Positions 736 to 13,132 of a DNA stretch of 13,776 nucleotides are shown here, piece after piece (the first letter of the stretch is position 1; each line of letters opens with the position of its first letter). Made by a program: the position numbers and the translations under genes. The notes below the pieces were generated by a model. That model did no database searches, was not told the origin of the DNA, and saw only the letters and a program-made list of their open reading frames with translations. Origin of the DNA: Candidatus Altiarchaeota archaeon (GTDB taxonomy: Archaea > Altiarchaeota > Altiarchaeia > IMC4 > SCGC-AAA252-I15); assembly GCA_026394745.1 (NCBI GenBank), contig JAPKXP010000112.1, positions 1-13,776 of the forward strand. The letters are read 5' to 3'.

Positions 736-1230
736 TCACACATAGTTCTCGACCATCACACGACAAGTATCATACTGAGTCTTGTTGCTGGAGAACATAC
801 CGCAACCGTCAAGATTCTTCCACAAGCCGAACGCGGACTGATAACAAACGTACCTGCCGCGGTCATTACTCATGCCCTCGCACCTGGACGGCTCGTTCCT
901 CGAAACAGCATTGCATATCACGCGGTCGTCGGCATTCCCGTATTCATTACACAAAGAAGGCTGCTTCAGCAAAGTCGCCCTGCATGCAGCATTAGCGTTG
1001 TCGCTGGTCTTTTCGCAAAGCGAAACATCATCACTCCACAAAGCCTTCTTCCAAAAGCAAACGTCCCTTGAATTAGAATCCAACGCATTACAGTCCCAGA
1101 CTTTCGGCTTCAAAGTGGTCGTAGACGATTTCAGCGTCGATACGGTAGTATCATCGCCATCTGGAGTCCCACAGCAGATGCAACCACCGAAAAAAACAAG
1201 GAGGATGACAAGCACAAAAACCAAACGCAT
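736..1230 (-). CDS. Cys-rich secreted/membrane-anchored protein with five tandem 'C-x11-13-C' repeats and an N-terminal hydrophobic anchor followed by GGCICCG
   Basis: ATG at 1230-1228, TGA at 738-736. The N-terminus MRLVFVLVILLVFFGGCICCG is a signal/anchor. The body has the repeats DCNALDSNSRDVC / LCEKTSDNANAAC / LCNEYGNADDRVIC / RCEGMSNDRGRYVC / GCGMFSSNKTQYDTC. A TATA-like TTTTTATC lies about 23-30 nt upstream. Confidence 0.6.
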   Translation of the reverse strand: MRLVFVLVILLVFFGGCICCGTPDGDDTTVSTLKSSTTTLKPKVWDCNALDSNSRDVCFWKKALWSDDVSLCEKTSDNANAACRATLLKQPSLCNEYGNADDRVICNAVSRNEPSRCEGMSNDRGRYVCYQSAFGLWKNLDGCGMFSSNKTQYDTCRVMVENYV

Positions 1231-1305: not shown

Positions 1306-1641
1306 ATGAAAAATAAAATACTTCCGGCGTTCTTGATACTACTGCTCGCAGGCATCGCGCAGGCAGCAAGCCAGCAATGCGAGACAAACTATGACGAATG
1401 CATAACAACATGCTGCGAAAACTGCGGCTCCCATACGGACTACGACAACAAGGGCGACTTAGTCTGCGACGTAGGCAGCACACAAAACCTAAAGCAGGAA
1501 TGTATTGAAGAATGCCTGCCATGCAGCACGGAATACCAGGACTGCGCAAGCCAGCCAGACAACGAAGGCGCTGGTTGCTGCTGCATCTCCATCGTGGTGC
1601 CATTGGTAACACTACTCACGGCGGCAATCGCAAAAGCGTAG
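1306..1641 (+). CDS. Small Cys-rich secreted protein (13 Cys in 111 aa) with signal peptide and C-terminal 'GCCC-hydrophobic-KA' membrane tail
   Basis: ATG at 1306, TAG at 1639-1641. N-terminus MKNKILPAFLILLLAGIAQA-ASQQ is a signal peptide. The C-terminus is ...GAGCCCISIVVPLVTLLTAAIAKA*. An SD-like GGGTGA lies upstream. Only 27 nt separate it from tspO, so the two are probably co-transcribed. Confidence 0.6.
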   Translation: MKNKILPAFLILLLAGIAQAASQQCETNYDECITTCCENCGSHTDYDNKGDLVCDVGSTQNLKQECIEECLPCSTEYQDCASQPDNEGAGCCCISIVVPLVTLLTAAIAKA

Positions 1642-1668: not shown

Positions 1669-2154
1669 ATGGAAAGAACAAGCTTCAAACTCGATGACAT
1701 CGTAAAGCTTATCGCATGCGTGCTAGTCTGCGAGCTCGCGGGGGTAGTAGGCTCGATATTCGCCATATCCGCCATCCCGACTTGGTACGCCGGCTTGAAT
1801 AAGCCGTTCTTCACGCCGCCGAACTGGGTTTTCGCGCCAGTTTGGACCGCACTCTACCTGCTGATGGGAGTATCGCTTTACATCGTCTGGAAACGCGGTT
1901 TTTCAGGAAACATAGCAAGGCTTGCTTTTGCGATACAATTAGTGTTAAACACCTTATGGTCGGTGGTATTCTTCGGCCTCAAGTCCCCTCCAGCAGGCGT
2001 CGTAGTGATAGTAATGCTGTGGACAGCAATCCTGGCGACAATCATAGAATTCCGGAAAACCTCGAAAACCGCGGCCGCGCTGCTCGCACCGTACCTGCTA
2101 TGGGTGAGCTACGCGACATTACTGAACATATCAGTAGTGCTGCTGAACCCGTAA
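1669..2154 (+). CDS. tspO: TspO/MBR family tryptophan-rich sensory protein (five-TM tetrapyrrole-binding membrane protein)
   Basis: Carries the hallmark 'FFTPPNWVFAPVWTALYLLMG' and 'LLAPYLLWVSYATLLN' motifs of the TspO family. ATG at 1669; size and hydrophobicity profile are typical. Confidence 0.88.
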   Translation: MERTSFKLDDIVKLIACVLVCELAGVVGSIFAISAIPTWYAGLNKPFFTPPNWVFAPVWTALYLLMGVSLYIVWKRGFSGNIARLAFAIQLVLNTLWSVVFFGLKSPPAGVVVIVMLWTAILATIIEFRKTSKTAAALLAPYLLWVSYATLLNISVVLLNP

Positions 2155-2468: not shown

Positions 2469-2496
2469 GCTATTACATCAAAACTGTTTGATTACG

Positions 2497-3189
2497 ATGA
2501 AAACCTACCGCATGGCATACTTAACGGTATTGTGTCTGGCTCTCGTGCTGCTGTTGCCCTCATTGTTCGAACACTTCCTGTGGCTTAGCGGGGGTAAGGG
2601 GCTGCGCTATATCTTCAGTGGCAGGTGGGATATCGCAGCCATGAACATAGTCTTCTTCGGCTTGTTTCTAGTCCTAGTCTCTTACAGAAGGCGGGTCGAC
2701 TGGCGTTCGAAGGGAATATACTCCGCGTTCATAATCGCATTGTTCGCCGAGATGTACGGGTTCCCGCTTACGGCATACTTCGTATCCAACTATTTTGGGG
2801 TCGTTGACGTTGACTACAGGCCGTTGTATACCGTCTCGTTCAGCTTTCTTGGGGTTTGGTACAAGCTATCGACAATGATGATGATAGGCGGTATCGTAAC
2901 GGTCATGGGACTTATACTCATAATACTGGGCTGGCGGGAGATATACAAGAACAAGAACGAGCTCACCACGACGGGAATCTACAAGTACTCGCGCCACCCG
3001 CAGTACCTCGGCATCCTGATGGTCGCGTTCGGCTGGCTGATACACTGGCCGACGGTGCTGATAATAGCCATGTTTCCTATTCTAGCCTACTCCTACGTCC
3101 AGCTGGCAAGGAAGGAAGAGGAGGAGGTCGGTAAGAAATTCCCTAAAGAATTCGAGAAATACGAGAAAGAGACTCCGATGATGCTGTAA
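2497..3189 (+). CDS. ICMT/PEMT-family membrane methyltransferase
   Basis: The C-terminal region 'ELTTTGIYKYSRHPQYLGILMVAFGWLIHWPTVLIIAMFPILAYSYVQLARKEEEEVGKKF' matches the ICMT family signature (TxGxYxxxRHPxY...EE). Multiple TM helices. The ORF-track start at 2488 is TTG. The first ATG is at 2497, with an alternative at 2512. Confidence 0.85.
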   Translation: MKTYRMAYLTVLCLALVLLLPSLFEHFLWLSGGKGLRYIFSGRWDIAAMNIVFFGLFLVLVSYRRRVDWRSKGIYSAFIIALFAEMYGFPLTAYFVSNYFGVVDVDYRPLYTVSFSFLGVWYKLSTMMMIGGIVTVMGLILIILGWREIYKNKNELTTTGIYKYSRHPQYLGILMVAFGWLIHWPTVLIIAMFPILAYSYVQLARKEEEEVGKKFPKEFEKYEKETPMML

Positions 3190-3414: not shown

Positions 3415-3468
3415 ATAAAAAAGGGGGGTATATAAAACAATGTGCAATAATAAAACACACTATTGCAC
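3415..3468 (-). terminator. Hairpin GTGCAATA-N11-TATTGCAC overlapping the serpin stop codon, followed on the minus strand by oligo-T tracts (TTGTTTTATATACCCCCCTTTTTT)
   Basis: The perfect 8-bp arms sit at 3443-3450 and 3461-3468, spanning the serpin TAG at 3460-3462. Downstream on the transcript come a T4 and a T6 run plus a C6 homopolymer (G6 on the plus strand at 3423-3428). This is consistent with archaeal oligo-U termination. Confidence 0.4.
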
Positions 3469-4821
3469 TGGATTCTCCAACCTGCCCATGAACAATATGT
3501 TCCCGCTCTTCCTATCTTGTATTACGAACACGAACGGATGGTCTGCATTGAAAACAGTCTGCGGGCGCACTGAAGTGAGGGCGACAATAACCGCAGTAGC
3601 CGCCGCAGCCTCAGTACCCTCCTCGTTCACGTCCACGTAAGCCTTGTGTATCACGTCGCTCACGTAAAGATTCCTCGAGCCGTCCATGCCGGAAAAGTCT
3701 GCGGCGCCCGGGTCAAAGGCAGAGCGCATGCCAAGCGCAGAAAGCTTCTGCGGCAGGGAGTACTGCGTCTCAAGCCTGAACTTAGGGATGTACACGTTAA
3801 CCTGCCCGGAATGTAGCATACTCCTGACAGCCTGAATCTTTTCCAACGTAAGTGCATCCTCCATATCCGATATTGAACCCTTAGGCAGGAGGATAAGCAT
3901 GGAAGTCTCGTTGCCGTCGTACAAAAGCTCCAACGCCTGAAGCTCGTCAGTCTCGGCGTAGTTGAAGACCGCATCCTTCCCAGTACGCCTCATCATCTCG
4001 GCCTTCACGGTCTTTCCGGGGGAGACGGTGAAGTCCTGCACGCTAGTCTCGTCGGCGTTAAACTGCTTAAGCCAAGTGCCCTTAAAGTATATCGCGTTGG
4101 TGAGAACTAGGCGCGTCATCTGATTCAACGCGCCGGCGGGAATCAAGTCCCGAATCTTGTCGTTAGTCTTGTCCTCCACCCACGAGTTAATCGTCTTCCT
4201 CGAACCCTCAGCGTCGCCGACGTAGTCCAAGGCTGACACCTCGCCGCCGTAATATTCCCTGACCACCTGCACGTACTCGCCCCGGAAGAGATAATCCTTC
4301 TGAGGCCACAGCGCGTTCGCGGTGTAAAGCTGGTATCCGGACTTTACGGAATTGATTCCCAAAAAAAGAGACTTAAAGCTTTCCCTACGCGCCGCATCGT
4401 CAGCCGGCAGGTGCAGGACTGCCATCATCTCATCGGCGGTCCCTCCGCGCGCGCCCTCGAAAGTCATCGCCAAAGCCGCGGAAACGCTGAACGGGGAGAA
4501 GAAAACGTTCCCGCCGCCAAGCTTCTTGTACAGTTCGAGCGCGAAACGGTTGTTAGCCTCTACGACGCTCAAGCCCTCGTCGCACCTTGGAGGGCTGGCG
4601 CACCCGCACTCGTCCACGACGCCGGGAATTATGGTGCCGTTAACGCACCAGCCGGGCGCGGGCGATGAGAGCATAGGACACTCGCCGCAGCCGCCTCCCG
4701 GAGGCAGCGTAGGCATGGGTAGAGTAGATGAAACTGGGGGAGATGGACTCCATCCTGAAAAAACAAATCCTAGCACGCACAAACCCAAAACAGCCAACAC
4801 GACGACAAAACGCAAGTCCAT
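3460..4821 (-). CDS. Serpin (inhibitory type) with N-terminal membrane anchor, Pro-rich linker and a 6-Cys module preceding the serpin core
   Basis: The C-terminal 'FNADHPFVFVI' is a perfect fit to the PROSITE serpin signature. The hinge 'EEGTEAAAATA' (P17 E, P15 G, P14 T, P12-P9 AAAA) indicates an inhibitory serpin. Helix-A-like 'EANNRFALELYKKL' is present. The N-terminus is MDLRFVVVLAVLGLCVLGFVF (anchor), then SPSPPVSSTLPMPTLPP, then CGECPMLSSPAPGWCVNGTIIPGVVDECGCASPPRCDE. Confidence 0.9.
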   Translation of the reverse strand: MDLRFVVVLAVLGLCVLGFVFSGWSPSPPVSSTLPMPTLPPGGGCGECPMLSSPAPGWCVNGTIIPGVVDECGCASPPRCDEGLSVVEANNRFALELYKKLGGGNVFFSPFSVSAALAMTFEGARGGTADEMMAVLHLPADDAARRESFKSLFLGINSVKSGYQLYTANALWPQKDYLFRGEYVQVVREYYGGEVSALDYVGDAEGSRKTINSWVEDKTNDKIRDLIPAGALNQMTRLVLTNAIYFKGTWLKQFNADETSVQDFTVSPGKTVKAEMMRRTGKDAVFNYAETDELQALELLYDGNETSMLILLPKGSISDMEDALTLEKIQAVRSMLHSGQVNVYIPKFRLETQYSLPQKLSALGMRSAFDPGAADFSGMDGSRNLYVSDVIHKAYVDVNEEGTEAAAATAVIVALTSVRPQTVFNADHPFVFVIQDRKSGNILFMGRLENPVQ

Positions 4822-4885: not shown

Positions 4886-6985
4886 TTATGATTTGATTAT
4901 TGCGGCGGCTAGTGCCGTTATTAGTATTGATATTGCTGGGAAGCAGCATGTTGTTGGTGTTTGGCCTTGTGTTTTTGTGTCTGGGCCGAGGTCCGTGTTC
5001 CATTGCAATGTTGTGTTTTCTGGCGTGTTGTAGGGTTGGTCTTTGTGCGTTCCAGTGGGTTTTAGGTTGAATGTGTGGGTGTCGAAGTAGTTTTGGTTGT
5101 CTGGCGTGGAGTAGTATTTTTGCCGGTATTCCTTGGTCGTTATTGAATATGTTTGCTGCGCCGTGTAGTCTTGCGAGTCGGGTTTGACTGTTAGGGTTGC
5201 GTCGACGTCGTCTGGAAGGGGCATGAGGTAGAGTAGTCCCTGCCGTACTTCAGTGTCGTACTCGTAGTCTTTGCCGTCCGCAGGGTTGTTGTAGTGTACG
5301 GAGACCTTGTAGTAGTGGACCTCTGTGTCAGGTACTTTTATGAACGCCTTGGGTATGTAGCCTGCGGTCTCCCGGAGGGGTCTTTCGTAGTTGGATGCCT
5401 TGCCGATTTTCTCGCCGGCGTTGTATGCCATTTGAGTGCGGTTGTCCGGAACGCCGTAGTCCACGAAGAATTCTCCGACTTCGTACATGCTGTTGTTTGC
5501 CGGCGGCGGGCTGTCCCTGTAAGGCTCGAATGCGTCGCGAGCGTGATTTCCTTCGCCTGTGTCAGCGAAGAATCCGTGCTCTATGAAGATTTTGTCTATG
5601 GCGTCCGCCTTGCCGGGGAATGCCGTCCTGAATGCGGTGTAGTATTCGTAGAAGTTCTTCCTTTTCACTTTTAGTATCGGCCACATCTGGCTTAGGTTGA
5701 GCGTCACCGTGTCGCCTTGGTCGTTGTTTTTGTCGTAGAGGTCCCATAGGACGCCGCATACGGCAAACTCTTCTGCGGCGCCGGTGCTGTCCCAGCTGCG
5801 GTAGTTGTTTTCCATGCTGCCGAAGCTGGCGTAGTGCTCAGGGTCGCGGTCGCCTCGGTAGTCTGAGATTGCCAGGGTCATGAATTCGGCGAAGCCTTCG
5901 ACGAAGGAGTCGCCGGTAGAAGGGTTGATGTACCCTGCGTGGTTTCGGCTGCCAGCCAGGGTGAATCCGTCAGGCCAGCCGCCGTAGGACGCGTACATGA
6001 GGTGGTGTGCAAACTCGTGGTATTCCCTGTTTTTCGGCTTGTTTGTTGAGCCGTAGGCGCTGTCGGAGAGTCCTATCGCCACCGAGGCGTCATTTGAGCT
6101 GTAGTATGTCTTTTGCCCGCTGGGGTCGATCCTCCTGTCTCCGATGACCGCCTTGACTGGGAGGTTGTAGTCTATGTTAGCCTTGAGATTTTTTATTGAA
6201 AAGTCCACTGCCTCGTGCATGTGGCGGTATATGGCTGCTATGTTCTCCACCTCAGATAGTTTTACGGTGGATTCTATTTTAGTGTCGTTGACTGTCAAGG
6301 TTTTGACTCCTGCGGGAGCATTAATCTTCAGGTCTATGTTTTGCGCAAGGTCCTGCTCCTCCCTGAGCTTGAACTCCTTTTTGAATGACTCGGGAGTCGA
6401 CACCCCCATGAGGCCGCCGCCCAGGGATATTCCGTGATTGACTGTGAAATAGTTTTTTTCGTTCCTGAAGTAGGAGAACTCGGCTGTTAGAGTAATCTTC
6501 ACGGGGTTGGTCTTGTTGTAGTGGAATTTTCCTAGTTGTATGACGTAGCTCCCGTTCTCGTTCGTTTCGTTGTATTGGCTGCTCAACGGCATGTCGGCAG
6601 TGACTGTCATGTATGGCAGGGGATTCCCGTGGCCGTCGGTTATCCTCCCTTTCAGAGCCCACTCTTTAGGTAGTGTCGTTGTGGTTGTAGTCGAGGTTGA
6701 TGTCGTCGAAACTTCGCCTGGGCAGGGTATGTTGGGGCGGACGCAGTAGTGCATGCTCGGGCATAGGGGGTCGTCCGGCGGTTTGACGCATTCCTTAGTC
6801 AGTTCGACGTTCTTTTTACAGTTGACGTTGTCGTACATGCACACGTAATCGACGCACTTGCCTACGCTTTCCTCCCAGCTGCGGCCGGGTGGACACTGCT
6901 GCCATCCGAGGGTTGTGTTTGAAAGAGACGCTATGAGAAGTAGGATAATCGCTATTTTAGTGCCTTGCTTTAGGCGAGCCATCAT
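4886..6985 (-). CDS. Large secreted/surface HExxH protein (putative zinc metalloprotease): signal peptide, Cys-rich module, Thr-rich linker, carboxypeptidase-regulatory-like beta-sandwich, HEFAHH domain, C-terminal 'CC-hydrophobic-KS' anchor
   Basis: N-terminus MMARLKQGTKIAIILLLIASLS. About 9 Cys lie in residues 30-90. The linker is STTSTSTTTTTT. 'GRITDGHGNPLPYMTVTA...NENGSYVIQL' is a CarboxypepD_reg-like motif. 'NREYHEFAHHLMYASYGGWPDGF' contains HExxH. There are many N-x-S/T sequons. The C-terminus is ...TPTTCCFPAISILITALAAAIIKS*. TATA-like AAATATAA lies about 20-28 nt upstream. Confidence 0.8.
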   Translation of the reverse strand: MMARLKQGTKIAIILLLIASLSNTTLGWQQCPPGRSWEESVGKCVDYVCMYDNVNCKKNVELTKECVKPPDDPLCPSMHYCVRPNIPCPGEVSTTSTSTTTTTTLPKEWALKGRITDGHGNPLPYMTVTADMPLSSQYNETNENGSYVIQLGKFHYNKTNPVKITLTAEFSYFRNEKNYFTVNHGISLGGGLMGVSTPESFKKEFKLREEQDLAQNIDLKINAPAGVKTLTVNDTKIESTVKLSEVENIAAIYRHMHEAVDFSIKNLKANIDYNLPVKAVIGDRRIDPSGQKTYYSSNDASVAIGLSDSAYGSTNKPKNREYHEFAHHLMYASYGGWPDGFTLAGSRNHAGYINPSTGDSFVEGFAEFMTLAISDYRGDRDPEHYASFGSMENNYRSWDSTGAAEEFAVCGVLWDLYDKNNDQGDTVTLNLSQMWPILKVKRKNFYEYYTAFRTAFPGKADAIDKIFIEHGFFADTGEGNHARDAFEPYRDSPPPANNSMYEVGEFFVDYGVPDNRTQMAYNAGEKIGKASNYERPLRETAGYIPKAFIKVPDTEVHYYKVSVHYNNPADGKDYEYDTEVRQGLLYLMPLPDDVDATLTVKPDSQDYTAQQTYSITTKEYRQKYYSTPDNQNYFDTHTFNLKPTGTHKDQPYNTPENTTLQWNTDLGPDTKTQGQTPTTCCFPAISILITALAAAIIKS

Positions 6986-7029
6986 TTACTAATCCGTGGT
7001 GTGGCTTATATTTGACTTTATTACGGCAT
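6986..7029 (-). promoter_or_regulatory. Putative leaderless promoter for the HExxH-protein gene
   Basis: Only 44 nt separate the mat stop from the protease ATG. The minus strand reads ...GTCAAATATAAGCCACACCACGGATTAGTAA-ATGATG, with a TATA-like box about -27 and no SD. Confidence 0.3.
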
Positions 7030-8103
7030 TTAGAAGCATTCGGCTTTTCCTGTGAGGCAAAGCTGCGTCATCTTTTGTATGTCGGCGAGCCACTTGTCCG
7101 CTATTTCTTTTGCCTTCTTTTCAATCTTCCTGTCGCCCACTACCTGGATGTCCGCGCAGAGCGGCTGGTCGATGGGCTTCCCGATCTGGCTCATCAGCCG
7201 CACGTACACCTGCTCCGCTCCTTCGTTTGCTATGTCTCGGGCACCGTTCGCGCGGTTTCCTCTGCCTACGCTTCCGTCGTCTCCCATCTCGCCGCTCGTA
7301 CCAGTAACAGTCAGGAATACTGAGCCTGCGCGGTAGTCGTCTGCGGTGTTTATGTCGACGACGACTTTTTCGTCTGTTATGCCTGCGATGCTGTCGAGTA
7401 TAAGCTTCTTTTCCTCTGCCATGACAACCTCGTACTCCTTGATGTTCTTGATGTGGCGTGAAACCATCGCGTTAGCGACAGTTAAAGTAATCTTGTTCTT
7501 ATATCTGACGCCCATCACCTTCACGTCTTCGCCGCTGCCCCGAATCTTCTTCTTCATCACGCCGTTGATGTACTTCTCGGTCTTGTAGACGAGCTCCTCA
7601 GTCAGTGAGAACGGAGCGTAGCTTACGCCGAATGACGTGTCATTGGACTTGGGCATTCCAGTACGACCGAACACATCCCTTAGGTCTGTTGAGCCTAGAC
7701 CAATCTTCTGGTCTACAGTCACGCCTGAAGAAACGTCTATGTGCGGGAAATTCTGTCTTAAGTAATCCCTGGCAGCCTTAATCGCGATGTCGCCGACTGG
7801 AATAAATTCGTCATCGACTTCAGTCGTTGCGCGGCCGCTCAAGAGGATGTAGATTGGCTTGATGACGCTTCCGGAACCGAATAATGGACTGCTCCTGCCG
7901 CCGACGAGCTCCACCTGGTCGGTGTTGTGGTGCATGATGTGGCCGTAGCGCTTCACGTACTCGTTGGAGAGTGCGCGGCTTACTGCTTCAGCCAGGCCGT
8001 CGCAGATGCTGTCTGGGTGTCCGATACCCTTACGTTCCACAAGCTCGACGTCTTGTTTCGCCACGGGAACGGAGTCTACGAATTCGACGGTGATGTTTCT
8101 CAT
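7030..8103 (-). CDS. mat: Archaeal-type S-adenosylmethionine synthetase (methionine adenosyltransferase)
   Basis: N-terminal 'VERKGIGHPDSICDGLAEAVSRAL...HHNTDQVELVGG' and 'LTVTGTSGEMGDDGSVGRGNRANG' are diagnostic of the archaeal MAT family and align by eye with M. jannaschii MAT. ATG at 8103-8101. Confidence 0.9.
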   Translation of the reverse strand: MRNITVEFVDSVPVAKQDVELVERKGIGHPDSICDGLAEAVSRALSNEYVKRYGHIMHHNTDQVELVGGRSSPLFGSGSVIKPIYILLSGRATTEVDDEFIPVGDIAIKAARDYLRQNFPHIDVSSGVTVDQKIGLGSTDLRDVFGRTGMPKSNDTSFGVSYAPFSLTEELVYKTEKYINGVMKKKIRGSGEDVKVMGVRYKNKITLTVANAMVSRHIKNIKEYEVVMAEEKKLILDSIAGITDEKVVVDINTADDYRAGSVFLTVTGTSGEMGDDGSVGRGNRANGARDIANEGAEQVYVRLMSQIGKPIDQPLCADIQVVGDRKIEKKAKEIADKWLADIQKMTQLCLTGKAECF

Positions 8104-8131
8104 GCTATAGATATCGGAATCATCCTTTATA
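8104..8131 (-). promoter_or_regulatory. 28-nt radA-mat spacer carrying TATAAA directly after the radA stop (about -22..-28 from the mat ATG)
   Basis: The minus strand reads TGA-TATAAAGGATGATTCCGATATCTATAGC-ATG. The spacing fits a leaderless promoter; alternatively the two genes are co-transcribed. Confidence 0.3.
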
Positions 8132-9067
8132 TCATTTAGCGTCGCGTATTCCGTCAGTCAAAACCTCGAAAACGCATTCTGCGTCTGGCATGCTGGGGCT
8201 GTCTATCATTTCGGCAATCCTCTTGCTTGCCTTGCCCTTCTTGAGGTAGACTCTGAAGGTGGAGTGGTGGCCTACGATGTGGCCGCCTACGGGGGTTGTG
8301 GGGTCGCCGAACATGATGTCCGGGCGTGCCATGACTTGGTTTGTCACCATGACTGCTGCGTTGTGCAGGTCCGCTATCTTCCGCTGGAGGGTGTGCATGT
8401 GGCGGTTCAGTTTTTGTTGTCTTGAGGCTAGCGTGCCCCTGCCCGTGTATTCGGCACGGAAGTGCGCGATTAGCGAATCTACTATGACTAGTTTTATGTT
8501 CTTCTCCTGCATTAGCTCTGATGCTTTTTCTGCGAGGAGCATCTGGTGGTCGCTGTTGTATGCCCTTGCGACTTGGATGTTTCCTAGAACCTCTTTAGGG
8601 TCGAGTTTCAGGGCTTTTGACATCTGTTGGATTCTTTCGGGGCGGAACGTGTTTTCGGTGTCGATGTATATTGCGCCGGCTTCCAGGCCGCCTTTATCCT
8701 TGGGTAGTTGAACGTTGACTGCGAGTTGGTGTGCGACTTGGGTTTTTCCTGAGCCGAATTTACCGAACATCTCGGTTATGGCTTGGGTTTCTATGCCGCC
8801 GCCGAATAGTTTGTCGAACTCCTTGCTGCCGGTGGAGAGTTTTCCTATTTGCTCTCTTTTTGCTAGTACTTCCAGGCCGGATTCGAAGCCCATTTGTAGT
8901 GAGTCTCTTGCTGCGTTGATTATTTTTTTGGCGCTGGCTTCGCCGAGGCCGACGTCAACGAGCTCGCCGACTGCGGCTGCGGCTATCGCCTCGATGCTTA
9001 CGTATCCTGCTTCCCTGAGTTTTTCGGCGATGGTTTCGCCTACTCCAGGTAGTTCTTCTAGGTCCAT
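8132..9067 (-). CDS. radA: DNA repair and recombination protein RadA
   Basis: The N-terminal helix-hairpin-helix '[20 protein letters not shown]' is followed by a RecA fold with Walker A 'GKFGSGKTQ' and '[15 protein letters not shown]'. 311 aa, no intein. A TTTTTAAC box lies about -30 upstream. Confidence 0.95.
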
Positions 9068-9160
9068 TTTGGTACGTAATTAATGAGAGTTTTCGTTAAA
9101 AAGCCAGCCCACAGAGTGCGTTGTAAAAGTGTTCGCTTTGAACTTTGACGCTTTAGTTAC

Positions 9161-11113
9161 TCAGTCGACTATCTTCTCCATCTTTTTTATTATTTCGGAG
9201 CCGTCGACTAGGGAGTATTTGAGGACGTCGATTAGGGTTTTCGCAGTCCTTATTATTATTTTGCCTTCGTATTTTTTCTCTAGGAGGACGTCCTTCATGT
9301 TGCTTTCCGGGATTATGACTTCTTTCATGCCTGCTTCGGCTGCGGCTTCTATTTTCTGGGTTACGCCGCCGACCGGCAGGACTTCGCCTCTGACTGTGAG
9401 CGAGCCGGTCATTGCTACTTCCTGTTTTACGCCCACGCCTTCGATGGCGGATATGACTGCGACTGCGACGCTCACTGATGCGGAGTCACCTTCCACTCCC
9501 TCGTAGGTCTGGAGGAATTGTATGTGTATGTCGTGCTTGTAGATGTCTTTCCCGCTTACGTTCTTGAACAACGCGGAGACGTTGGTGACCGCCTCTTTGG
9601 CAATCTCCCCGAGTTTTCCTGTCGCGTAGATTCTAGCGCTCTCCTTGCTTTGGGCTGGAGCGACTTCGGCGACGATTGGTAGGACCGTTCCGCCTTCGCC
9701 GAATACTGCAAGGCCGTTGACGCGCCCCACCTTCTCTCCGCTCGTTATGAGTATGTTGTATTCCTTCTTGCGTTCTAGTATTACGTCGCCGACCTGCTGC
9801 TCCATTGTCCTTGCTGACTTCTTGCCTTCGAGAACATCCTCGGTCGTCACGTACTTGTGCTTCTTTTCGCTGGCTATGTCGCCTGAAGCGCGGATGAGCC
9901 CTCCAATCTCCCTGAACCGGAGGGTGATTTTGTCGCGCATGCCAGCCTTCCTTTTAGCTTCCTTGATTATCTCTTCCACTGCCGTTTTTGTGAAGTGCGG
10001 GATTTTACCGTCCTTCCTGACTTCCTGAGCGACGAACTGCACGAACTTCTTCCGGTTTTCGTCTGTGTCGTCTATGTTCTCTTTCATGAACACCTCGTAG
10101 CCGTAGCCCCTGATTCTGGAGCGTAGTGCGGGGTGCATGTTCTCTACGACGTGCACGTTGCCTGCCGCCACGAGGATGAAGTCGCATGGAACCGGGTCTG
10201 TTATGACCATCGCGCCTGAGCTCATCTCGCTCCTTCCGGTTATTGAAAGCTGCTTCTCCTGCATCGCAGTCAAAAGGTCGATTTGCGAGTTCCCGAGCGC
10301 CCCGACCTCGTCGATGAACAAGACGCCCTTGTTGGCCTTGTTGATTAGCCCGGCGACGACGCGAAGGTGCGCTGGGGTTCCGAGTCCGCCGGTCTGAAGC
10401 GGGTCGTGCTTTACGTCGCCGAGGAGCGCGCCTGCGTGGGCGCCTGTGCCGTCGTAGAACGGAGCCATCTTTTTCCTCTCGGCGTTGTCGACTATGACCC
10501 TGGGAATCAACGTCTTTGTTGAGCCCATCATGCCGCGGATGTTGACTCCGAACAGCAGGAAGAATATTATGCCGAATCCCATCCAAGCCGCTATGACTAT
10601 GCCATCTTTTATCAGCCCGAACATGTAGGCCGTAAGCGGGAGAACGAAGAACAGTAGCAGCATCGTCAGGACTCTGCCTCCGCCGTCTCTCCCGCCGTCC
10701 ACATCCTTCTCGCGCTCTGCCTTGATTATCTTCCTGCCTTCGCCTGCTGGGAAGACTTTTATCTTCGGGTTGTTCTCGTCCTCGAGGTTTGGTATGGACA
10801 GGATGTCGACGAGCGCCTCGCAGGGCAGTAGTTCGGCCATGGCGTTCGCGAGCATGCTCTTCCCGGTTCCGGGGTCGCCGATGAGGAGTATGTGCCTCCT
10901 CTGTTTGGCGGCCTTGCGTATGGTGTCGACCGCCTTCTCCTGGCCGATGACCTGGTCGATCAGCTTTTCAGGGACTTTGATGTTCTCAGTAGTCTCGAAG
11001 TCACTCCATTTGCTCATGGAGACTGCATCGATAAGCTTTTCAGCGCTTGATGCTGCCTTGACGGGCTCTACCCTGGCGTCCTGCTTGGACTGTCTTCCCT
11101 TTTTCTCCTGCAT
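9161..11113 (-). CDS. lonB: Archaeal membrane-anchored Lon protease (LonB): AAA+ module with inserted TM hairpin and a Ser-Lys protease domain
   Basis: Walker A '[10 protein letters not shown]'. The TM insertion is '[43 protein letters not shown]'. Catalytic 'GDSASVSVA' and '[11 protein letters not shown]' are present. The ORF-track start at 11119 is GTG; the first ATG is at 11113-11111 (MQEKKGRQ...). Confidence 0.95.
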
Positions 11114-11115
11114 TT

Positions 11116-12102
11116 TCACTGTTTGCCGACGCTTTCAGGCAGCTGGTATATCATCTGGTTTGATGGTAGCGCTACGAAGTTCGTGTTCGGGTTCGTGTAG
11201 AGCTCCTCCATTATCTGAAGTTGCTTGAAGCTGTATGCGTTAGGGTTCGCCTTGATTGTGTCTGCTACCGTCTTCAGCGCCTCGGCCTCGGCTTTAGCTA
11301 CTATGATTTTGGATTCAGCCTCCCCTCTGGCAATCGCAATCTTGGCCTTAGCCTCGCCTTCTGCTATCGCGACCTGCTGGTTTGCGATTCCCTCGCCCTG
11401 AATCTTCAGCCGCTCGGCCTCCTTCTGCGTAAGCTCCAGTTCGTACTGTTTCTTGAATGCCTGCTGTTCCATGGCCTGCTTGTCTTCTATCGCGCTGGCT
11501 ATGTCGGTTGGCATTGCGACTTCCCGGACTAGCACGTCCTCGATTATGAATCCGTCCTTCTCGAACAGCGGCTTCAGCTTCACGAACGACTCCTGCTGGA
11601 GCCTTTCCCTGCCTGGGCCGTATATGTCTGTCACGGACATGTTGCCTGTGACTTCCCTTATGACGGCGCGTATCTCAGGAATCAAAGTGCCTTTACGGTA
11701 TTCTGTGGTAAGCTCCTGCACGATTGACGGCGCGGCTGATGCCCTCGTCTTGTAGAGCACTGAAACGTCGGAAGTGACGATAAGGCCCTCCTTTGTCGGG
11801 GCTGATATCGCTATGTCGTCCCCGCCGGGGTGCAGGTTTATCGTGTCTCTCGCAGTCTGCACTAGGTAGACTGACTGGACTAATGGTAGCTTGAAGCTCC
11901 ATCCGGGATTGCGGACTGAATTCATGCTGATTCCACCCCATGCCGTGTAGTCTACGCCTACAAATCCTGCTGGTATGATAACGAGTATGTCGCCGACTAC
12001 CGATAAGACGACGATAAGGAGGATGAAACCGACGAACAATCCTACCCCGGACTTGAACAAAGACGAAAACATGCCGCTGACATCATCGTATTTGGTTGCC
12101 AT
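11116..12102 (-). CDS. SPFH/band-7 (stomatin/prohibitin-like) membrane protein
   Basis: N-terminal TM '[18 protein letters not shown]' is followed by an SPFH domain and a C-terminal coiled-coil Ala/Glu/Lys-rich region ([33 protein letters not shown]). ATG at 12102. SD GGAGGG lies 7 nt upstream and a TATA-like TCTATATAAC at about -23 to -30. Confidence 0.9.
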
Positions 12103-12157
12103 AAGAGACCCTCCGTATTTTAGTTATATAGATTACTATTACGGCGCTTGCTTAAAT
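12103..12157 (-). promoter_or_regulatory. Promoter for the SPFH-lonB pair (TATA TCTATATAAC plus SD GGAGGG)
   Basis: The 55-nt spacer after the kae1 stop reads, on the minus strand, ...GTAATAGTAATCTATATAACTAAAATACGGAGGGTCTCTT-ATG. Confidence 0.4.
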
Positions 12158-13132
12158 TCACCAGACGACTTCAATGTCGTCGGTCCTCTGACTCTGCTTT
12201 ACGACAGTATCTTCGATTCCCATCCGGACTCCCGCATCGTGCATTTTAAGGCCGAGCATCGCTATCATCACGCCGTTGTCGCCCATGTACTTCGCTGGAA
12301 AGCTGAATTTGGCGTTGTGTTCTTCGGCGACTAAACGTACCATCTCCTGCAGGCGCTTGTTGTTTCCGACGCCGCCTGTGAGAATCACTTCCTTTGCCTT
12401 CACGTGAGCTAGAGCTCGCTCAGTCACCTCGCAGAGCATCGCAAAGGAGATCTCCTGTATGCTGTAGCAGAGGTCTTCGAGCGGAACGCCCTTCTCGAAC
12501 TTCTGCAATGCCGCCGTGAGCATTCCGGAAAACGACAGGTCAGTGCCCTTGACGACGTAAGGAAGTTCAATGAAGTTTTTTCCGTTCCTCGCGAGCTCCT
12601 CAATCTTGGGTCCTGCTGGATGCGAAAGGCCGGCTTCTCTCCCGAACTTGTCGAGCATGTTGCCTATGCCGACGTCGAGCGTCTCGCCGAAGACCCTGTA
12701 TCTGCCGTCCTTCAGCTTTATGACTTGGCTGTTTGCGCCGCTGACGTAGAGCACTAGCGGGTCCTTGAATCCGGAGAGCACGTTGCCTACTTCGATATGT
12801 GCTATGCAGTGGTTGACTCCGATAACCGGTTTATGGTAGGCTAGCGAGAGTGTTCTTGCAGCGGTCGCTATAGTCCTAAGGCACGGGCCGAGGCCAGGCC
12901 CCTGGCTGAACGCGATTAGGTCTACGTCCTCCATTGTCAGTTTAGCCTGCTCTAGCGCCGCATCCAATGCAGGCCTCATGTTGTCGACCATGTGCTGGGA
13001 CGAGTCCCGCGGGTGGATTCCGCCCTTCTTTGGAGCATAGCTCTTCCGGACGTCAGCTAGGACATTGAATTTTCCGTCATTCAAACCTACGCCGAGCGTG
13101 TGGGCTGTGCCCTCAAGTCCTAATACAATCAT
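12158..13132 (-). CDS. kae1: tRNA N6-adenosine threonylcarbamoyltransferase Kae1 (KEOPS catalytic subunit), not fused to Bud32
   Basis: 'MIVLGLEGTAHTLGVGL...', 'GIHPRD', 'FSQGPGLGPCLR', 'VIGVNHCIAHIE' and 'LTGGVGNNKRLQEM' are the Kae1/TsaD family ASKHA motifs. 324 aa. Confidence 0.95.
   Translation of the reverse strand: MIVLGLEGTAHTLGVGLNDGKFNVLADVRKSYAPKKGGIHPRDSSQHMVDNMRPALDAALEQAKLTMEDVDLIAFSQGPGLGPCLRTIATAARTLSLAYHKPVIGVNHCIAHIEVGNVLSGFKDPLVLYVSGANSQVIKLKDGRYRVFGETLDVGIGNMLDKFGREAGLSHPAGPKIEELARNGKNFIELPYVVKGTDLSFSGMLTAALQKFEKGVPLEDLCYSIQEISFAMLCEVTERALAHVKAKEVILTGGVGNNKRLQEMVRLVAEEHNAKFSFPAKYMGDNGVMIAMLGLKMHDAGVRMGIEDTVVKQSQRTDDIEVVW

Follow-up and report, generated by a model that had tools for sequence, protein, structure and literature searches.

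The DNA analysed here, called the window throughout, is a 13.8-kb contig (13,776 nucleotides) of a metagenome-assembled genome (MAG) of Candidatus Altiarchaeota with locus tags of the NTU61_ series. A first-pass annotation had drawn attention to the C-termini of two secreted proteins encoded on it, a Cys-rich protein of 111 amino acids (aa) and an HExxH metalloprotease of 699 aa, and had read their common layout as a candidate sorting or anchoring signal. The observation was partly confirmed and the interpretation partly supported by the present analysis. The two tails and the genes of the window, which were named by Pfam and NCBIfam searches, are the following:

736-1230, minus strand, small Cys-repeat protein of 164 aa (open reading frame, ORF)
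1306-1641, plus strand, Cys-rich secreted protein of 111 aa (ORF)
1576-1638 (stop codon to 1641), plus strand, tail of the 111-aa protein, CCCISIVVPLVTLLTAAIAKA (translation)
1669-2154, plus strand, TspO (Pfam/NCBIfam)
2488-3189, plus strand, membrane methyltransferase of the ICMT/PEMT superfamily (Pfam/NCBIfam)
3460-4821, minus strand, membrane-anchored serpin (Pfam Serpin, E=2.8e-115)
4886-6985, minus strand, secreted HExxH zinc metalloprotease of 699 aa (ORF, homologues, AlphaFold2/Foldseek)
4889-4954 (stop codon from 4886), minus strand, tail of the protease, TTCCFPAISILITALAAAIIKS (translation, alignment, profile)
from 7030 on, housekeeping genes: archaeal S-adenosylmethionine synthetase, RadA, LonB, band-7 protein, Kae1, tRNA-splicing endonuclease

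Translation of 1576-1641 (plus strand) and 4886-4954 (minus strand) reproduced both tail sequences exactly as first annotated. The layout is present in each, the last Cys being followed by 16 uncharged residues, Lys and one small residue. Both proteins also possess the N-terminal signal peptides ascribed to them, which are of the Sec type and were read by eye as MKNKILPAFLILLLAGIAQA|AS and MMARLKQGTKIAIILLLIASLSNTTLG. Signal-peptide-like N-termini were likewise seen by eye on homologues, and the tail stands at the extreme C-terminus.

The protease begins with a signal peptide and a Thr-rich stretch, after which come a CarboxypepD_reg-like beta domain (weak PF13620 match in Pfam) and a thermolysin-fold catalytic domain; a C-terminal beta domain and a linker then lead to the Cys tail. 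We found 116 homologues, and H322-E323-x-x-H326 is invariant in the family alignment. The AlphaFold2 model (predicted local distance difference test score, pLDDT, 73.8) gave thermolysin, aureolysin and gentlyase as best Foldseek matches (E 1e-5 to 5e-4). NCBI labels for the tail carriers are 'hypothetical' or 'carboxypeptidase-like regulatory domain-containing'. The family shows some variation in gene organization. In one locus (L212) two tandem paralogues, at 7009-9966 and 10001-12988, both bear CPC-[LM]PLL tails. In another (L076) the gene is split into a catalytic part (9233-11170) and a separate ORF of 156 aa (11172-11642), which has its own signal peptide and consists of the C-terminal beta domain and the Cys tail (hhalign probability 93%).

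The same kind of ending occurs in about 25 homologues whose cores are 40-50% identical, and all of those with an organism name belong to Altiarchaeota. It consists of an unalignable linker rich in Gly, Asp and Thr, a cluster of the form CC, CxC or CCC, the motif [LI]-P-x-L-[PT], a hydrophobic stretch and Lys or Arg; more loosely, one to three cysteines abut [LIF]-P-x-[LI]-[PTS]. Examples are CPCLPLLPLVLAGLASALLKF, CFCIPLLPMLLAGLATLLAKA and CCCLPLLPLIIAGLLSVVFRRLP. The consensus originally drawn from the two window tails, CC-helix-K-[AS], has to be replaced accordingly by C-x-C or CC, [LI]-P-x-L-[PT] and 16 residues to Lys or Arg. The window protease tail aligns in register with 20 or more orthologue tails. 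In an alignment of 19 sequences the last Cys (C680) is conserved to 95%, the Pro (P682) to 89% and Leu or Ile at position 684 to 95%, and the linker columns to only 22-47%. Orthologues without the Cys cluster had been named as the observation that would speak against a signal, but the cluster is kept while the preceding linker drifts. The distance from the last Cys to the first Lys or Arg is 16 residues in 17 of 29 tails and 17-18 in 5 more, and 0-6 residues follow the basic residue. AlphaFold2 models residues 672-678 of the window protease as a disordered linker and 680-697 as a single terminal helix. As in known sorting signals of the cysteine type, a near-invariant Cys motif abuts the hydrophobic helix without a spacer. 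We conclude that the tail module exists and stands under purifying selection. Judged from the alignment, the window protease tail is a divergent copy of this conserved Altiarchaeota module and its positional orthologue.

A profile built from the homologue tails separated members (19-45 bits) from all other ORF ends (15 bits or less) in three control sets: loci of many lineages that contain homologues (1.23 Mb), metagenome loci selected by pattern (0.54 Mb) and viral loci (79 kb). In addition, a leave-out profile was trained on protease tails with both window tails excluded and run against 10,338 unselected ORF ends, the best of which reached 11.6 bits. Independent tails, namely those of L048, L069, the second L212 paralogue and an FG-GAP repeat protein, scored 18-30 bits with a protease-tail profile of other genomes. 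The window protease tail obtained 10.0-10.6 bits with the leave-out profile, in register over its full length, a score matched by about 2 in 10,000 control ORFs; among the 10,338 unselected ends just 1 attained 10 bits. On these profile scores, the protease tail exceeds chance expectation. A simple regular expression matched 10 of 1,687 ORFs in Altiarchaeota loci versus 1 of 4,894 elsewhere, and the lone outside match is a protease homologue of an Anstonellales MAG ending CCLPALL... A protease homologue at 9179-11350 of locus L074 (Candidatus Anstonellales MAG, DPANN) ends EEEVCCLPALLCVGILTVASLSSIGTCKKGLQ and receives only 5-8 bits with the tail profile; the motif may thus have a divergent counterpart beyond Altiarchaeota in this ending.

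In a neighbour-joining tree of the protease family the Cys-tail proteins form one clade. Proteins of other clades end in a PGF-type signal, in a plain helix with an Arg/Lys run, in a Lys-rich tail around a conserved KPHLKKA, or in zinc ribbons. Thus, the tail fills a place that is held in homologues by known sorting signals. Paralogues whose helix continues into a cytoplasmic zinc ribbon or a long run of basic residues have no Cys/Pro motif; some are nested within the Cys-tail clade, and the rest come from additional loci of Altiarchaeota. The motif therefore goes with helices that lack a cytoplasmic continuation. None of eight tails matched any CTERM model of NCBIfam 20.0 at E<=10, whereas the PGF-type control tail did match, P0063 giving Heimdall-CTERM (E=2.7e-4), Loki-CTERM and PGF_CTERM. 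Pfam holds no model that matches the tail.

The tail is not confined to proteases. When 1.84 billion representative proteins were searched with a profile, 10 matches at E<=0.001 were obtained, and in this set the FG-GAP repeat protein P0118, which comes from another sample and is unrelated to the protease, was found with E=3.8e-5. It ends GGGLCCLPLLPAVLALAFSLMAGTAVKLS and scores 30.2 bits with the profile trained on protease tails alone. The tail is thus both restricted to a lineage and portable to an unrelated protein. Large protein searches have little power for a motif of 25 residues, and in a local test default tblastn masked the tail as low complexity. A tail-only profile run against 5.8 billion proteins returned one protease fragment, a result that tells little because merely 2,219 word-matched candidates were scored. 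At the DNA level, a search with the tail alignment matched 21 viral stretches, of which 0 were confirmed. The degenerate pattern CC[LI]PxLPx[h][LI]A gave 9 matches in viral sequences and at least 120 loci in metagenomes (best 13.7 bits), all by chance.

The 111-aa protein has 17 Cys (15%), starts with a signal peptide and carries a hydrophobic helix at its C-terminus. It found only itself among 5.8 billion proteins, gave no Pfam or NCBIfam match and had no tblastn match in 82 loci. Its tail is without the [LI]-P-x-L-[PT] motif and scored -1.6/-1.7 bits with the leave-out profile. Cysteines beside the helix are not a rare event here since 15% of the protein is Cys; by our estimate they would be found there by chance in roughly 6% of proteins so rich in Cys. 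The spacing of 16 residues and the ending in Lys plus one residue are nevertheless common to this tail, the window protease tail, P0007, P0014 and P0015, and plain anchors of the protease family end, unlike it, in runs of Arg and Lys. The two window tails are not recent copies of each other, as their DNA is identical at just 33 of 69 positions, and a recent duplication was rejected on this ground. Of the proposal that two unrelated proteins share a tail, the conserved protease tail stands and the pairing is weak. As far as its sequence goes, the 111-aa tail appears to be a match in layout only, which may be no more than chance, and we give it a roughly even chance of belonging to the protease-type class.

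A mirror image of the tail had been described at the N-terminus of the small Cys-repeat protein (736-1230), and it is indeed found there. The 164-aa protein starts (1168-1230) with MRLVFVLVILLVFFGGCICCG, which looks like a lipobox signal peptide and has a Cys cluster at its end; read from the sequence, it has F-G-G-C and then I-C-C where the lipobox has [LVI][ASTVI][GAS]C. Weak homologues adjoin the protease gene at L004 1-402, L044 8970-9638 and L213 4852-5928. Two of them begin FFCGCCFCCGGG and LLSGCLCNP, with FFCGC and LLSGC at the lipobox position, and the signal peptide of the L044 homologue has no cysteine. A small secreted protein of C-x(9-12)-C repeats is thus a recurrent neighbour of the protease gene, lipobox-like with extra Cys in 3 of 4 copies, and it might act together with the protease or regulate it.

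Of about 250 genes in Altiarchaeota loci, 11 (about 4%) have lipobox-type N-termini, among them several with CGC or a Cys cluster, and canonical LLAGC and LLSGC neighbours are common. Examples are L002 8835-9965, L004 6331-7032, L007 19564-19980 and 13800-14711, L044 6013-6921 and 12023-12487, L064 4155-4685 and L076 7602-8045. An unusual share of these lipoboxes continues with C-G-C or more cysteines directly after the lipobox Cys. The frequency of lipobox-type N-termini suggests that lipidation of cysteines on the outer side of the membrane takes place in this lineage. In archaea the lipobox Cys carries a thioether-linked archaeol, added in Haloferax by AliA/AliB (PMC12462473).

Among the other genes of the window, the ICMT-like gene (2488-3189) deserves attention since it sits between both tail genes. 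In Pfam it scored 37.5 bits with PEMT and 29.8 bits with ICMT, and 28.8 bits with the NCBIfam isoprenylcysteine methyltransferase model, the cutoff of which is 160; the best sequence match in the PDB was the ICMT structure 4A2N (E=0.15). The gene product thus resembles ICMT only remotely. As CaaX processing finishes with ICMT, a link to the tail looked suggestive. A 57%-identical orthologue lies at L044 3224-4299 in an unclassified archaeal MAG, directly after an MsrB-like ORF and near a protease paralogue that ends in a plain transmembrane helix plus RRRKK. The methyl donor of ICMT, S-adenosylmethionine, is cytoplasmic, and the cysteines of the tail would lie outside. Because the L044 paralogue lacks the tail and the donor is on the cytoplasmic side, the link was rejected as unsupported.

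Directly downstream of the protease gene and on the same strand lies the serpin gene, and a 51%-identical serpin stands beside a protease homologue in another Altiarchaeota MAG (L024 240-3662). The serpin is thus a conserved neighbour of the tail-bearing protease. Targets of serpins are serine and cysteine proteases, not metalloproteases. Two Altiarchaeota contigs carry a gene for a TspO/MBR tryptophan-rich sensory protein a few kb away from that of the protease (window 1669-2154, plus strand, and L004 5779-6255; 56% identity). On the minus strand, the LonB gene (9161-11119) and the band-7/SPFH gene (11116-12102) share 4 bases (11116-11119), an overlap that suggests translational coupling. The locus with the split protease gene encodes, at L076 7972-9210, a secreted Cys-rich protein of 412 aa that weakly resembles group XII secretory phospholipase A2 (PF06951, E=3.9e-5, under the gathering score); to our knowledge, such an enzyme would be unusual for an archaeon. 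The contig of P0021, a single-Cys variant of the tail-bearing protease, encodes an intramembrane protease of the SPP/presenilin type (PF06550; 15395-16285 of the locus) 3 kb from the protease gene, and this protein is a possible candidate for removal of the helix.

Taken together, we tentatively read the protease tail as a tripartite C-terminal signal of the cysteine type, specific to Altiarchaeota, that would serve sorting or anchoring, and we give this reading close to an even chance. The N-terminal signal peptide would direct the protein to export by Sec, and the C-terminal helix would be held in the cytoplasmic membrane with its Lys inside, an arrangement that would place the cysteines on the outer side of this membrane. 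If the parallel to MYXO-CTERM and CGP-CTERM holds, a Cys thiol might then be lipidated, in archaea probably with the thioether-linked archaeol found on lipobox proteins. Removal of the helix by an intramembrane protease would leave a lipid-anchored protease at the surface. Such a course of events is the working model for MYXO-CTERM (PMC11980579) and has been proposed for CGP-CTERM of Thermococcales as well (10.1101/2023.06.07.544157). Lipidation, cleavage and the enzyme are wholly conjectural parts of the scheme for the Altiarchaeota tail, and the 111-aa protein might use the same route.

Several results weigh against such a signal. A co-occurring archaeosortase or rhomboid had been suggested as a test of the idea; the window contains no gene for an archaeosortase, as had already been noted, and none for a CPBP protease or a rhomboid (Pfam, NCBIfam), and none of the three was found in any neighbourhood examined. 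The gene lists around seven homologues had no PF02517, PF09721 or PF01694, and a Pfam search of 10 multi-helix neighbours identified just AI-2E, BacA, DUF7544 and LPG synthase. The firm carrier families are only two, the protease family and one FG-GAP fragment, and no further carrier was found in about 270 kb of Altiarchaeota flanks. The 156-aa ORF of L076 was considered as an independent carrier family and rejected owing to its homology to the C-terminal domain of the protease. The negative profile score of the 111-aa tail belongs here as well, as does the basic part of the tail, which is usually a single Lys or Arg (K-S and K-A in the window).

The strongest competitor, which we regard as rather unlikely though still to be reckoned with, is a permanent type-I membrane anchor whose helix is never removed. 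The cysteines would then serve disulfides, metal binding or reversible S-acylation; the disulfides might be formed with the Cys cluster of the neighbouring small lipobox protein, and the metal might be bound as in the CCxxP helix of MerT/MerE. The failure to find a processing enzyme fits this explanation, as does the weak basic end, which is unlike that of known cleaved signals. The conserved neighbourhood of a small Cys-repeat protein with an N-terminal Cys cluster would suit partners that meet at the membrane face. One tail has a faint match to MerE (E=0.1), but no mer genes were found in the window (Pfam, NCBIfam) or otherwise nearby. Strings of the type CC[LI]PxLP arise by chance within other hydrophobic ORFs; however, a plain anchor needs neither a conserved Cys-x-Cys-[LI]-Pro nor a fixed spacing of 16 residues. 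Moreover, paralogues with clearly permanent helices are without the motif, and other lineages have PGF-type sorting signals at the same position. Should the tail be a permanent anchor only, it would be a minor annotation detail.

Less probable, and in our view unlikely, is that the protease family has inherited a C-terminus of its own and that the resemblance of the 111-aa protein, whose helix would be an ordinary one, is a coincidence, with no general signal across unrelated proteins of the genome. The single clade of Cys-tail proteases, the score of the 111-aa tail (-1.6 bits), the lack of another carrier in the Altiarchaeota flanks and the single protease fragment returned by the tail-only search of 5.8 billion proteins are what one would expect in this case. 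The large searches are weak for so short a motif, however, and P0118 has a canonical tail that is recognized at 30.2 bits by a profile trained without it. In addition, the spacing and Lys-plus-one end of the 111-aa tail are those of the window protease, P0007, P0014 and P0015.

We consider it improbable, though worth stating, that Altiarchaeota possess a CaaX-like extracytoplasmic pathway of their own, in which a vicinal-cysteine motif on the outer side of the membrane would be thioether-lipidated, possibly on more than one Cys, the helix cut off by an intramembrane protease and the lipid-anchored protein handed on to the outer membrane or cell surface. The Cys clusters that follow lipobox signal peptides in mirror image would then share the same chemistry. 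Should the ICMT-like neighbour also have a role in it, archaeal ICMT/Rce1 homologues would gain their first natural substrate class. Least probable is a divergent archaeosortase signal (PGF/PEF/VPXXXP-type) with the enzyme encoded elsewhere in the genome, since, for all the identical tripartite layout and the PGF-type ends at the same position in homologues of other archaea, no tail matches an archaeosortase-signal model while the PGF-type control does, the defining residues are Cys-x-Cys-L-P instead of P-G-F, the window and neighbourhoods hold no archaeosortase, and we found no literature linking Altiarchaeota with archaeosortase or, for that matter, with CAAX proteases.

C-terminal sorting signals determine which proteins remain at the cell surface, and every discovery of such a signal has brought a further processing enzyme to light, i.e. 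sortase, exosortase, archaeosortase, rhombosortase and myxosortase. We know of no C-terminal sorting signal described for Altiarchaeota. This phylum is widespread in the subsurface and has an unusual double membrane and grappling-hook appendages (PMC6098224). The Cys-x-Cys-[LI]-Pro tail offers a search handle for the surface proteome of Altiarchaeota and a target for phylogenetic profiling toward a processing enzyme.

The first-pass annotation had compared the tails with archaeosortase-type signals. For the protease tail the tripartite layout bears this out, but no hidden Markov model of such a signal matches and the nearest analogues are of the cysteine type. The closest known ones are MYXO-CTERM and CGP-CTERM, which are cut not by archaeosortases but by CPBP/Rce1-like myxosortases (bioRxiv 10.1101/2023.06.07.544157; PMC11980579). 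MYXO-CTERM, like the Altiarchaeota tail, is a tripartite C-terminal signal on Sec-exported surface proteins that follows a disordered linker and in which the Cys motif abuts the helix. It has an invariant Cys, often two ('GCGC'), and occurs in a host with two membranes (PMC11980579; 10.1101/2023.06.07.544157). Cleavage by the CPBP protease MrtX depends on these cysteines, and the lipidation step of cysteine-type signals is not yet known even in Myxococcus (PMC11980579). In contrast to our tails, MYXO-CTERM is bacterial, ends in an Arg-rich cluster, has no [LI]-P-x-L-[PT] and a known cognate CPBP protease, and occurs on dozens of carriers per genome; its model TIGR03901 gave no match to the tails.

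CGP-CTERM shares with them its archaeal origin, its very short length and the order of Cys and Pro at the start of the helix, and tail P0003 even reads CCGPALP. Its putative enzyme, the archaeomyxosortase MrtA of Thermococcales, has been predicted by genomics only (10.1101/2023.06.07.544157). However, CGP-CTERM combines a basic cluster with a fixed C-G-P motif that contains one Cys only, and it is confined to Thermococcales; its model TIGR04288 matched no tail at E<=10. An Arg-rich cluster after the helix is a mark of the cysteine-type signals (MYXO-, CGP-, JDVT- and Synerg-CTERM), and the Altiarchaeota tails lack it. PGF-CTERM and archaeosortase A provide a parallel in position and layout, the more so as homologues of the window protease carry PGF-type ends. 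Lipid attachment and ArtA-dependent cleavage are coupled processes in Haloferax volcanii (PMC6098224). The PGF motif, however, is without cysteine, the enzyme is an exosortase homologue resembling Cys proteases, and its models do not match our tails.

In lipobox lipoproteins (AliA/AliB) a Cys likewise marks the border between a hydrophobic helix and the mature protein, but the topology is mirrored, since the helix precedes the Cys and is cut off by a signal peptidase. AliA is not known to act on C-terminal motifs. CaaX proteins are similar in that a C-terminal Cys is lipidated, the residues beyond it are cut off by a CPBP protease (Rce1) and the new carboxyl group is methylated by ICMT. There, however, the Cys is fourth from the C-terminus, whereas here it is 19-21 residues from the end and would face the outer side of the membrane. 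MerT/MerE come to mind because there, too, a membrane helix opens with a CC pair and a following Pro; these are small multi-helix mercury transporters of mer operons, in contrast to a single terminal helix on large secreted proteins. Compared with all of these, the tail appears to resemble the cysteine-type signals and yet to belong to no described family. What sets it apart is the combination of vicinal or C-x-C cysteines with a Pro-containing helix start, a fixed spacing of 16 residues and a single basic residue, and with these marks it would be an additional example of the emerging cysteine-type signal class.

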